Source: a virus. Taken from it: 39,185 bases of DNA. The stretch lies in UHGV virus genome UHGV-1491546. The stretch is one strand, 5' to 3'. The notes below the pieces were generated by a model, which ran no database searches, had not been told where the DNA came from, and was given only the letters and a program-made list of their open reading frames with translations. A program made the position numbers and the translations under genes. Below are positions 6,635 through 39,185 of this stretch, one piece after another; the stretch's first letter is position 1, and the number at the start of each line of letters is the position of its first letter.

Positions 6635-6859
6635 TCATAATTCACTCTTCAATACTTCCAACTTACTAATCGCCGATAGATATCCGCGCTGATAGGGCAT
6701 CATCATTCCTTCGAGCTTGCCACTTCTTAACTCCTCCCTGAGCAATTGTATTGCTTGATCAATAACCTCTGCCTTAGCGTCCTTTATGGCTTGCTTGCGG
6801 GGCTTTGCTTTCTGCTTTGGCAGATTTCTCAAGCATGATGGAATGTATGTCTGATTCAT
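6635..6859 (-). CDS. small hypothetical protein immediately downstream of N
   Basis: ATG 6857-6859 with GAGG SD inside the N 3-prime end; 74 aa. Confidence 0.5.
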   Translation of the reverse strand: MNQTYIPSCLRNLPKQKAKPRKQAIKDAKAEVIDQAIQLLREELRSGKLEGMMMPYQRGYLSAISKLEVLKSEL

Positions 6860-6862
6860 CAC

Positions 6863-7135
6863 TTACCTCGCCGTCAGTTGTTTTGATTTCCGGTAGCCTG
6901 CCGCGTAAAGAGCTACGTTTGGCAGGCAAATACTTCCACTGCATTCATCTGCCTTCTTGCAGCGAAGGCTTCCGAGTGAAGCTGCTTTGTCTGCTCTGAC
7001 GCAACCAGAGAGCTTTAGCGCAATTTTTCGCGCCAGTCGCTGCTCTTGCATTGCCTGTTCACGTTGAGCCTGTCTGCGTGCTCTGCGGCGATTTCTGGCG
7101 TTATCGTCAGCCAGATATGTAATGACTACTGTCAT
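6863..7135 (-). CDS. N: N-type transcription antiterminator (P22 gene 24-like)
   Basis: From ATG 7133-7135 (GGAGG SD): MTVVITYLADDNARNRRRARRQAQ... with an N-terminal arginine-rich motif and C-terminus LPNVALYAAGYRKSKQLTAR close to recalled P22 gp24; track ORF extends to 7207. Confidence 0.8.
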   Translation of the reverse strand: MTVVITYLADDNARNRRRARRQAQREQAMQEQRLARKIALKLSGCVRADKAASLGSLRCKKADECSGSICLPNVALYAAGYRKSKQLTAR

Positions 7136-7175
7136 GTTGACCTCCGGGTAGGTGCACATCCTTGTGTGTCGATGA

Positions 7176-7295
7176 TTATTTGTTTTTGCGTTCCCACATC
7201 CAGTCATCTACTTCAGACCAGATAGTGAAACCGAAGCCGATGGCGAATGTGGTAACTAAACCACCGAGAATTGGGTTGGTCATGATGTCTAACAT
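7176..7295 (-). CDS. small hydrophobic peptide (39 aa), possible type I toxin-like membrane peptide
   Basis: ATG 7293-7295 preceded by GAGGAA; MLDIMTNPILGGLVTTFAIGFGFTIWSEVDDWMWERKNK; below the ORF-track cutoff; overlaps the track N extension in another frame. Confidence 0.4.
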   Translation of the reverse strand: MLDIMTNPILGGLVTTFAIGFGFTIWSEVDDWMWERKNK

Positions 7296-7320
7296 TTTCT
7301 GTTCCTCAGATGATTAGCTT

Positions 7321-7547
7321 TGGTGGTGTGGTGGCTGGTAGTCTAGCTCCAGCTTGTTGAGTCTCATTCGGAGGGGTATAACCGGCACCCCAGCGATTTT
7401 TCCATGCGACAACGTGCGCGTTATGGCGGCCTTATCGCCCGCGGCTCCCCATCTCGTCCACGCTATTGCTAGCGTTGGGAGCGCTTCACCGCTCAACAGT
7501 AGGTAAGCACTTGCCAGTGACTAGCTGGCTTCACCACACCCCAAAGC
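7321..7547. other. GC-rich ORF-free element bounded by imperfect inverted repeats (structured RNA leader or MITE-like insert)
   Basis: About 58 percent GC by eye against a more AT-rich background; only TTG/GTG ORFs without SD; 7321-7342 and 7520-7547 are inverted complements (GGTGTGGTG / CACCACACC). Confidence 0.4.
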
Positions 7548-7561
7548 CAACTACTCTTTGG

Positions 7562-7604
7562 TTCCCGCATTTCGGCGGGACAATCCCATCAATGTTAAAG
7601 AGCC
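7562..7604 (-). promoter_or_regulatory. nutL (boxA and boxB)
   Basis: Minus strand: boxA GGCTCTTTA (plus 7596-7604), 14 nt, then boxB GTCCCGCCGAAATGCGGGAA, 19 of 20 identical to the nutR boxB at 9258-9277. Confidence 0.7.
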
Positions 7605-7649
7605 TGCCAATCTGTTCCGTTTGGCTACCAGCGTCCTGCTGATGGCTAA

Positions 7650-7736
7650 AGAATACTGTAGGTATTTTATTGTGTAAATACCCAAGGTATTTATTTTTGG
7701 TGAAATAATGATAAGCAAATGAATACAAAGGATATT
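7650..7736 (-). promoter_or_regulatory. OL operators and pL promoter
   Basis: Three 15-bp sites AATAC-N5-GTATT (third ATATT) at 7652-7666, 7677-7691 and 7722-7736; minus-strand -35 TTTACA (7673-7678) and -10 TATTCT (7650-7655) with 17-bp spacer. Confidence 0.6.
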
Positions 7737-7822
7737 TATTTTTTCGGTGTCTGCTTGTTCAGTGCTTTTTATGCGGGATATGTGAAGTGGATCCCGATAG
7801 CTATTGCTGCCGGGATTATGGG

Positions 7823-8191
7823 TTAGTCAGCGAAGGTTAAGACGAGAATTACCTTAATGATGTCTGCTACAACAGACACGGCCATAGATAAACCAAAGAC
7901 AATCCAAGCCATAGAGATGTCTTCACTACCATCGTATAGAGTTCCGTAATCACTGGTGTAAGGCGTAAATGTCGCGCCTTGATACAATAGGTATAAGCTT
8001 GATCCATAGAGGATAAATGCAGATATCCCTTGTATTGCCATGATCGCCAGAATCATGAAACGAGCTGATCTATGCGCCCAAGCCTGGCTTATTTTTTCTG
8101 ATAGAGATTTCGCAATAAAAGCATGCGCTAAGCCGTAAATTGTTGAGATTGCCAACATCCCCAAAAAGCTTGCTATAGCGGTTACAACCAT
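7823..8191 (-). CDS. multi-pass membrane protein downstream of cI (rex/sie-slot gene)
   Basis: ATG 8189-8191, 18 nt after the cI stop (track ORF starts at TTG 8212); 122 aa with about four hydrophobic helices; likely co-transcribed with cI. Confidence 0.6.
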   Translation of the reverse strand: MVVTAIASFLGMLAISTIYGLAHAFIAKSLSEKISQAWAHRSARFMILAIMAIQGISAFILYGSSLYLLYQGATFTPYTSDYGTLYDGSEDISMAWIVFGLSMAVSVVADIIKVILVLTFAD

Positions 8192-9232: not shown

Positions 9233-9277
9233 CGCTCTTTAACAGTCATGGTCCTCATTCCCGCCGAAATGCGGGAA
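9233..9277 (+). promoter_or_regulatory. nutR (boxA and boxB)
   Basis: boxA CGCTCTTTA at 9233-9241; boxB hairpin TTCCCGC-CGAAAT-GCGGGAA at 9258-9277. Confidence 0.7.
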
Positions 9278-9283
9278 TACAAC

Positions 9284-15966: not shown

Positions 15967-16202
15967 GCGTTTTAAGCACAACGGAAAGCCTTATTTCATG
16001 CCCTGCTTAGTCTCGACACTAAGTATTTGGGAGAGTTGGCTTCCCCATGTGGTTAAAACAGGGTTTGTAATGGGTACTCAGCCAAAGAACCTTCCTGTAG
16101 GGCGCTGAGCTAAGTCTCACGTAGTAGCCACCACATCCTAACCTGCTACCTCAGGAAATCGGTCGAAAGACGCCTGATAAACGTAACTGGTCCCATTCAG
16201 CT

Positions 16203-16559
16203 ATGGCTAGACCGGCCAGTCGAAAAGCAGTATCGTCACTGCCTGCCATAGCGAACATAGACGAGCAACTAGACGAGGTTGTTATGGAAAAAATCTCTGA
16301 AAGAGAACTGCATTTTCTCAATCGAATTCTTCAATTTAAGCAGGAGAGAATTGCTGATTCTGACGTACAGGATGATGAGATTCTCATGGTTGACTCATTG
16401 GTCCGTCATGGATATCTTGCTGTTGGCTTTTTCGACCGTGATAATAACGGCGGATATCATAGCTTAATGCAATACTACTCTCTTACCGAACTTGGCGTTG
16501 CAGCTCATAAAGATGAATGGAAATGGAGAGGGAATCCAAATTCAAATAAAGGTCGCTAA
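16203..16559 (+). CDS. hypothetical moron protein between Q and holin
   Basis: Track ORF 118 aa; better-supported start at ATG 16284 (GAGG SD, 92 aa); stop codon sits in the loop of its own terminator. Confidence 0.55.
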   Translation: MARPASRKAVSSLPAIANIDEQLDEVVMEKISERELHFLNRILQFKQERIADSDVQDDEILMVDSLVRHGYLAVGFFDRDNNGGYHSLMQYYSLTELGVAAHKDEWKWRGNPNSNKGR

Positions 16560-39130: not shown

Positions 39131-39185
39131 TGGTGTCCCCTGCAGGAATCGAACCTGCAATTAGCCCTTAGGAGGGGCTCGTTAT
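39131..39185 (-). tRNA. argW: tRNA-Arg(CCU) (argW-like), 3-prime 55 nt only; attachment core region
   Basis: Reverse complement ATAACGAGCCCCTCCTAAGGGCTAATTGCAGGTTCGATTCCTGCAGGGGACACCA shows anticodon loop CU-CCU-AA, T-arm GGTTCGATTCC and 3-prime CCA; 5-prime part beyond window end. Confidence 0.75.

Follow-up and report, generated by a model that had tools for sequence, protein, structure and literature searches.

Between nutL and the gene for the antitermination protein N, the early-left (pL) leader of phage lambda contains a hairpin whose GU-rich 5' arm is the boxC of nutL. The hairpin is reportedly an RNase III site, and a cut that parts nutL from the ribosome-binding site reportedly relieves the repression of N. 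In this study, the GC-rich block in the same slot of the UHGV virus genome UHGV-1491546 was analysed. The whole stretch of 39,185 nt, called the window below, is a P22-like lambdoid prophage. The block is probably this prophage's allele of the leader-trailer hairpin of N-dependent lambdoid phages, acting most likely in cis.

N represses its own translation via nutL, and the leader in between has been described as 'highly structured' (PMC5725501). The nut sites of lambda include a boxC (PMC2724277). In the ribosomal RNA (rrn) operons, the leader-trailer helix around 16S rRNA, which is cut by RNase III, has the boxC UCUGUGUGGG in its 5' strand, and the structure of the helix counts for more than the boxC sequence (PMC10250234). 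The order of elements in the rrn operons is the same as at this locus: a nut-like site, a GU-rich leader strand, a structured stable RNA and a complementary trailer. RNase III cuts the rrn helix and, by homology, would cut the helix described here, and in both cases structure is more conserved than sequence (PMC10250234). The enclosed RNA is different, being 60–235 nt of variable identity and not rRNA, and the downstream sequence is an mRNA under translational regulation.

Homology of the Closing Helix to the Lambda N-Leader Hairpin

The block is closed by a long-range helix, P1. Folding and an inverted-repeat search paired 7548-7532 with 7333-7316 as 8 bp, a bulged A7324 and 9 bp. A closing helix had been proposed in an initial annotation made from the sequence alone; it is real, and longer than was noted there. 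Its 9-bp core was placed at 7540-7532 (GGUGUGGUG) and 7333-7325 (CACCACACC). The complete arms in this prophage are GGCUUUGGGGUGUGGUG ... CACCACACCACCAAAGCU.

Lambda (J02459) has the arms GGCUUUGGGGUGUGUG ... CACACACCACCAAAGCU between nutL and the Shine-Dalgarno (SD) sequence of N, in the same position as in this prophage. The lambda record reads GGCTTTGGGGTGTGTG ... CACACACCACCAAAGCT there, with the same arms and the same bulged A. The arms of this prophage were homologous to lambda GGCUUUGGGGUGUG / CACACCACCAAAGCU with its bulged purine. The lower 8 bp and the bulge were identical, and the upper helix differed by one inserted pair. The location was also consistent: boxB ends at 7563, P1 occupies 7548-7316, and the SD follows at 7307-7303, at the same distance as in lambda. 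The same arrangement of nutL, helix and SD was found in lambda, HK620, P22, 21, phiKp_30 and Min27. The role is presumed to be the same as well, so that cleavage would uncouple nutL-bound N from translation initiation.

The interior of the hairpin, in contrast, bears no sequence relationship to that of lambda and is about double the length (roughly 200 vs. 100 nt). Its D-arm-like and T-arm-like hairpins, joined by a 5-bp kissing interaction, are absent from the lambda interior. A 39-aa open reading frame (ORF) lies between the hairpin and N in this prophage. The initial annotation took the block for an addition to the RNase III hairpin that is usual in this slot. This part did not hold: the block is that hairpin, its arms match those of lambda, and the apical part alone is different and larger.

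The RNase III cuts in lambda reportedly lie at +88/89 and +197/198. If so, they map to UUUGG|GG and CC|AAAG and would leave 2-nt 3' overhangs across the bulge. Via these positions, cuts in this prophage are predicted between G7541 and G7540 and between C7322 and A7321.

Conservation and Covariation of P1

P1 was found in lambda, 21, P22, HK620, Sf6 and Shiga toxin (Stx) phages, and in Klebsiella, Hafnia and Pectobacterium phages. Covariation was examined over 41 distinct arm pairs, drawn from collections of viruses and of genomes. Many of these were collected by arm-anchored patterns, with upper-helix arms partly selected for pairing. Over the 17 pairs of the helix, 97.3% of cells were paired, and 10 of the 17 pairs changed on both sides. 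None of 500 shuffles reached this result, and slid controls gave at most 3. The covarying arms included GGUGACGUG/CGCGUCACC (HK620), GAUUGGAUG/CAUCCAAUC and ACUGGCG/CGCCAGU (P22). In four phages picked by N homology only (P22, 21, Klebsiella phage phiKp_30 and Stx phage Min27), the helix was present in 4/4.

The lower helix UUUGG/CCAAAG was invariant in sequence (UUUGG/CCAAA at 7545-7541 / 7323-7319 in this prophage), P22 and phage 21 included, and the pairs above and below it covaried freely. The purine-CCAAAG motif of the 3' strand was also found in P22, 21, phiKp_30 and Min27. Purine-CCA followed directly after the upper helix in every allele seen.

A first pattern scan of genome contigs with CCAGCCACCACACCACCAAAG gave zero matches. 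A second scan gave mostly chance matches together with six Enterobacterales loci. A metagenome scan for a divergent lineage of the 235-nt type described below found no new variant.

Composition and Fold of the 235-nt Block

The block common to phages at 100% identity is exactly 7314-7548 on the minus strand, 235 nt, with both helix arms included. Its GC content was 0.59–0.60, compared with 0.30–0.46 in the flanks. The only long ORF within the block was 60 aa with a TTG start (7314-7496). A coding reading was rejected: a natural 1-nt deletion (L133) and a natural 1-nt insertion (L007) disrupt this ORF, and the block is therefore non-coding. This agreed with the initial annotation, which had described about 230 bp of GC-rich sequence between nutL and N with no coding role.

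The fold of the whole leader was better than 100/100 shuffles (z = −3.27). Rfam gave no match to the element, either at gathering thresholds over the whole window or at E up to 10 over 7000-7900. The earlier view of a structured, non-coding RNA in the pL leader, with a long-range closing helix and a size unusual for its slot, was upheld. The parts of the block and of its surroundings are given in Table 1.

Table 1. Features of the pL leader region of UHGV-1491546, in minus-strand order (window positions).
Feature	Position	Strand	Sequence or description	Basis
cI-type repressor gene	8925-8209	−	First in minus-strand order	
129-aa ORF	8212-7823	−	Multi-pass membrane protein, function unknown	phrog_6534
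pL promoter	7678-7650	−	TTTACA, 17 nt, TATTCT	Promoter scan; HK620 likeness
nutL	7603-7563	−	boxA GCTCTTTAA (also given as GCUCUUUAA), 7603-7595; boxB hairpin UCCCGC-CGAAAU-GCGGGA, 7580-7563	
P1, 5' strand	7548-7532	−	GGCUUUGG-GGUGUGGUG; GU-rich, boxC-like leader strand	Lambda arm match; inverted repeats I2/I3; covariation
Linker	7531-7530	−	A7531 A7530, 2 nt, between P1 5' strand and H1	
H1, D-arm-like hairpin	7529-7513	−	GCCAG-CUAGUCA-CUGGC	Fold; loop complementarity
Central multi-hairpin domain	7512-7354	−	About 160 nt; stands in for anticodon and variable region	
H3 hairpin	7475-7460	−	ACGCU-AGCAAU-AGCGU; inside central domain	
Hn, T-arm-like hairpin	7353-7334	−	GCUGG-AGCUAGACUA-CCAGC; directly adjoins P1 3' strand	
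P1, 3' strand	7333-7316	−	CACCACACC-A-CCAAAGCU; bulged A7324	Lambda arm match; covariation
8-nt direct repeat	7316-7309 and 7178-7171	−	TAATCATC; brackets ORF module vs. HK620	Read from sequence
39-aa ORF	7295-7176	−	Peptide MLDIMTNPILGGLVTTFAIGFGFTIWSEVDDWMWERKNK; SD GAGGA 7307-7303; one predicted membrane helix	
N gene, antitermination	7135-6863	−	P22/HK620 type	Pfam N_peptide, 59.5 bits; phrog_271

Sixteen distinct variants of the 235-nt type were recovered, the most divergent with 16 substitutions. The structure scored within this type consisted of P1, H1, H2, H3, the middle hairpin, H5, Hn and the kissing interaction. In total, 98.7% of cells paired and four pairs changed on both sides, which 0/500 shuffles matched. 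Two of these four pairs fall in H3 and are compensatory (GC to AU and CG to UA). RNAalifold gave a rival long-range pairing for the bases of H3, columns 77-90 with 133-147. H1 was unchanged in 14 variants, though the neighbouring C25 varies, and a stretch of 35 nt (alignment columns 26-60) was invariant.

The H1 loop U7523-C7519 (UAGUC) is complementary to the Hn loop G7343-A7339 (GACUA), with five Watson-Crick pairs. The loop variation within the 235-nt type (C25U; CU to AA at columns 204-205) spares these five pairing bases. An 8-bp match of 7632-7625 to the 3' half of Hn was judged to be chance.

The Interior as an Exchangeable Cassette

Sf6 has the 235-nt block at 100% identity, without annotation, in the space from nutL to gene 37. 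The block was also identical in HK544, HK633, HK446, mEp213, mEp043 and Sf101. Among 5426 complete E. coli genomes, 58 carried it at ≥98.3% identity, with a median of one place per genome, so that the repeated element offered as an alternative in the initial annotation was not seen. At 98–100% identity, the block occurred in no fewer than four nutL/N contexts, namely those of the HK620/P22-type N (here), the lambda N (L007, L062), a third N (L006) and the Hafnia-type N (L137, L148). Other interiors were carried by 80 loci with this prophage's N allele; 68 of the 80 had the 71-nt HK620 type and none the 235-nt type. More than 30 interior types of about 60–235 nt were found in all. Identity between mosaic partners stopped inside the upper helix, and the conserved arms are therefore probably the recombination homology. 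The interior is a cassette swapped by recombination within conserved arms.

Two cassettes in tandem, the 235-nt type and then the SCU-308 type, were found at L159 (IMG/VR 3300045988_069239, ~6690-7142). Between the two lay a truncated N start and the leader strand in a second copy. The arrangement looks like a recombination intermediate at the conserved arms. At L045 (7513-7590), and also at L129 and L134, only the 3' third of the 235-nt cassette was present, with a lambda-type N after it and unrelated coding sequence fused to its upstream side. This fragment is a deletion remnant in a defective prophage.

Relationship of the Cassettes to tRNA

Two of the cassettes in this slot are tRNA-like genes. 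The L003 cassette (Hafnia phage Pocitis76, annotated as tRNA-Gly) scored 47.2 bits on the Rfam tRNA model, for which the gathering score is 29. The E. coli EC20 cassette (L001, 2641-2722) was called 'tRNA-OTHER' by the Prokaryotic Genome Annotation Pipeline (PGAP) and tRNA-Pro by ARAGORN, and both programs reported tRNAs in L003 and L001. A PGAP 'tRNA-OTHER' lay between the repressor gene and N in EC20 and in E. coli AR_0058. In both, it is an N-leader cassette within the leader-trailer helix rather than a tRNA gene standing alone. L029, L023 and L073 have an insert of about 85 nt flanked by canonical D and T arms. The T stem GCUGG/CCAGC of L003 and L029 was identical to the stem of Hn in this prophage.

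The cassette of this prophage itself did not match RF00005, and ARAGORN found no tRNA or transfer-messenger RNA (tmRNA) anywhere in the window. The layout, however, was that of a tRNA core: the ends are paired, a 2-nt linker leads to the first hairpin, the last one adjoins the 3' strand, and the loops of these two hairpins can pair. The connectivity of acceptor-like stem, 2-nt linker, D-like hairpin and stacked T-like hairpin is the same as in tRNA and tRNA-like RNAs (RF00005; YrlA, tmRNA and viral tRNA-like structures). The T stem shared with sibling cassettes that score as tRNA and the purine-CCA after the stem add to this likeness. Judged from the sequence, the kissing loops may replace the D-loop/T-loop elbow; the shape in three dimensions is conjectural. 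The element differs from tRNA in having no anticodon arm, in an elbow of Watson-Crick kissing and not of D/T tertiary contacts, in a stack of 14 bp and not 12 bp, and in a CCA that is base-paired in the precursor. A tmRNA identity was rejected with ARAGORN and Rfam, neither of which reported one; stem position 3 is U-A and not the tRNA-Ala-like G3-U70.

In the cassettes with kissing loops, among which ARAGORN found no tRNA or tmRNA, cognate H1/Hn loops formed five contiguous Watson-Crick pairs, compared with at most three for non-cognate loops. Loop-loop shuffles gave p = 0.004–0.036 per type and 0.02 for the type of this prophage. Five pairing classes were observed: UAGUC:GACUA (here), GACUA:UAGUC (L291, strands swapped), GCUGA:UCAGC (many), GUCGA:UCGAC (L314) and ACUGA:UCAGU (L415). 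In L314, two pairs were exchanged with the hairpins otherwise similar. The loop-loop pairing covaries across cassette types. Inside three kissing-loop cassettes (L223, L302 and L328), a canonical T-arm sequence, GGCGGGUUCGAUUCUCGCU, stood shortly before Hn, which suggests a nested or decayed tRNA within the cassette.

A literature search found no description of tRNA-like cassettes in the N leader. In the literature searchable here, no account was found of the pattern across the family, in which the helix is universal, cassettes are swapped inside it and an elbow mimic covaries.

The 39-aa ORF

The ORF and its SD were found where the initial annotation had placed them (Table 1). The peptide belongs to phrog_7482 (function unknown; E = 7e-24). 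In the EC20 allele, there were 7 synonymous and 6 conservative codon differences, and the start, stop and SD were kept, so the ORF fits a real coding gene. It was present in 31 of the 5426 E. coli genomes, always unannotated and in prophages, and had zero matches in 50,697 phage records by tblastn and blastn. The 8-nt direct repeat brackets the ORF module. HK620 has a single AATCATC followed by GGAGGTCAACATG, with no second copy of the repeat.

The cassette occurred without the ORF in L006, L007, Sf6 and L062, and the ORF with other cassettes in L005 and L001. The two are therefore separate modules. The ORF is an independently acquired gene (a moron) for a small, predicted membrane protein of unknown function.

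The peptide has one hydrophobic helix (residues 9-25, mean Kyte-Doolittle 1.87) and a Trp/Lys-rich tail, and the initial annotation had compared it with Ldr. Like Ldr and other type I toxins, it is short, with a single hydrophobic helix and aromatic and basic C-terminal residues. Unlike them, it is acidic overall, with a net charge of −2 compared with +2 for LdrD, and it lies in the pL operon. Searches of Pfam and NCBIfam at E up to 1 returned no family for it, Ldr included. BLASTP against an LdrD sequence aligned 5/12 residues. A promoter scan, which is a weak test, found no antisense promoter-like site opposite the ORF. The Ldr comparison was therefore not upheld.

Two minor observations concern this ORF. 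A 7-bp match between boxA and the ORF start was judged to be chance and was absent in the EC20 allele. Clustering at 90% identity put the peptide among N proteins of 99–101 aa with which it shares no sequence, which looks like a database artefact.

Proposed Mechanism and Alternative Explanations

By analogy with lambda and rrn, the hairpin would work as follows. The antitermination complex on nutL would keep the leader strand close to where RNA leaves the polymerase, as proposed for rrn (PMC10250234). The cassette would fold alone into a compact body with adjacent ends, which would allow the trailer strand to pair with the leader strand. The closed helix would then set the downstream ribosome-binding sites, of the 39-aa ORF and then of N, beside nutL-bound N, and N would repress translation. 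Cleavage of P1 by RNase III at the predicted positions would sever nutL from the message and relieve repression, as in lambda. Any autonomously folding RNA with adjacent ends would serve in this slot, which could be why it holds tRNA-like and tRNA-shaped cassettes of many sizes.

Several points weigh against this explanation. The predicted cuts depend on the positions reportedly mapped in lambda (Steege et al. 1987), and the RNase III step for this element is put forward by homology only. Because many arm pairs were collected by arm-anchored patterns, the statistics of P1 are biased in the upper helix. For the central 160 nt, any secondary structure is provisional, since the data favour neither H3 nor the long-range pairing. 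The lambda, SCU-308, L032 and L071 cassette types have no loop-loop complementarity. A role as any compact spacer poorly explains the sequence invariance of UUUGG/CCAAAG and purine-CCA, for which pairing alone is insufficient. It also hardly explains the 98–100% identity of the 235-nt cassette and its invariant 35-nt stretch.

In a different explanation, the cassette would encode a tRNA mimic that is released as a stable RNA and acts in trans, and the effect on N translation would be secondary. RNase III would excise G7540 to C7322, giving a 9-bp acceptor-like stem on the T-like arm and a D/T-like elbow, and the 3' tail A-CC could be completed to ACCA by the CCA-adding enzyme. Such an RNA might divert tRNA-targeting defence nucleases as a decoy, compete for tRNA-binding enzymes, or even be chargeable. 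Canonical tRNA-like genes fill the same slot, and the tRNA-core layout, the common T stem and the covariation of kissing loops across cassette types are consistent with this idea, as is the very high conservation of the 235-nt type with its invariant 35-nt stretch. Purine-CCA occurred in every allele, including those of P22, 21, phiKp_30 and Min27, which were picked independently of the arms. The lambda cuts, if they lie at the reported positions, would leave ...ACC-3' (here ...CACACC-A-CC, one A short of a tRNA end). The cassette of this prophage, however, fails the Rfam tRNA model and ARAGORN, and its missing anticodon arm and its 14-bp stack are unlike tRNA. Even the tRNA-scoring L003 has G at position 33 of its anticodon loop, where tRNAs have U. 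The CCA lies within a helix required by RNase III, which gives another explanation for its conservation. Short alleles such as the 71-nt HK620 type have no tRNA-like features, yet no other type occurs as often with this N allele. Release of a stable RNA is conjectural, and this explanation was considered rather unlikely. A broader form of it is that the early-left operon opens with a stable-RNA gene, with nutL and the boxC helix as a miniature rrn operon and the cassettes as diversifying tRNA mimics; this was held to be unlikely. If it were true, the cassettes would act in trans on the host tRNA-recognising machinery or on tRNA-targeting anti-phage defences, and the known effect on N translation would be one consequence among others.

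The apical 200 nt could instead be a neutral passenger, a decayed captured tRNA or other RNA inside a selected helix, which need only not hinder P1. Alleles of 60–235 nt with unrelated interiors apparently all work, and the high identity of the 235-nt type could mean recent spread and not constraint. Against this stand the compensatory changes within the 235-nt type, the covariation of the loop-loop pairing across types and the loop variation that spares the five pairing bases; inserts in a packaging-limited phage would also be expected to shrink. Neutrality was considered very unlikely. The readings offered by the initial annotation, a type I toxin-antitoxin-like module of structured RNA and 39-aa peptide or a miniature inverted-repeat transposable element, are extremely improbable. 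The hydrophobic helix with its Trp/Lys-rich tail, the weak local likeness to LdrD and the inverted repeats flanking the block speak for them. However, the cassette and the ORF assort independently, the peptide matches no Pfam or NCBIfam family and differs from LdrD in charge, and the promoter scan gave no promoter-like site antisense to the ORF. The ORF cannot act as an addiction module in a lysogen because it is co-transcribed from the repressed pL. The toxin-antitoxin reading is not supported, and toxicity of the peptide is only conjectural. As for a transposable element, the block was found in the N-leader slot only, at the loci examined, without target-site duplication, and its inverted repeats are the arms of every allele, lambda included.

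The element adds a new, large and tRNA-shaped allele to a regulatory hairpin that was already known. A textbook case of a regulatory RNA, the lambda N leader has so far been regarded as a single hairpin of a single phage. The comparison showed that the helix occurs throughout the N-dependent lambdoid phages, where it is kept by covariation, and that its interior is a slot for recombination cassettes. Many of these keep a tRNA-like architecture, including the unannotated 235-nt block of Sf6, HK544, HK633, mEp213 and this prophage, and some have a covarying contact between loops where tRNA has the D/T elbow. This gives a concrete link, open to experiment, between antitermination by N and the rrn-type design of a leader-trailer helix enclosing a stable RNA, and it raises the question of whether tRNA mimics are made by these phages. 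In annotation, PGAP 'tRNA-OTHER' calls beside N genes are explained by N-leader cassettes. The element should be marked in place of a blank of 60–235 nt or of spurious ORFs across it.

Genomic Setting

In minus-strand order, the region consists of the repressor gene, the membrane-protein ORF, pL, nutL, the GC-rich block, the 39-aa ORF and N. The pL/nutL flanks were 98.6% identical to HK620, in which pL, OL1-3 and nutL are annotated. The nutR site at 9234-9278 has a boxA and a boxB identical to those of nutL, with the boxB copy at 9259-9278. The phrog_6534 membrane-protein gene lies directly 3' of the repressor gene, which is the slot of the rexB-type exclusion genes in lambda.

Three further RNA matches were found elsewhere in the window. 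A tRNA at 39134-39185 (−) is represented by its 3' two-thirds, cut by the end of the stretch (Rfam tRNA, 32.7 bits); it probably marks the prophage boundary as a tRNA attachment site. At 16200-16266 (+), the Rfam int-alpA RNA motif was matched with 43.7 bits, compared with a gathering score of 35.8. The sar antisense RNA of the P22 immI region gave a full-length Rfam match at 34773-34840 (−) with 92.8 bits, and the prophage therefore has a P22-type second immunity region.

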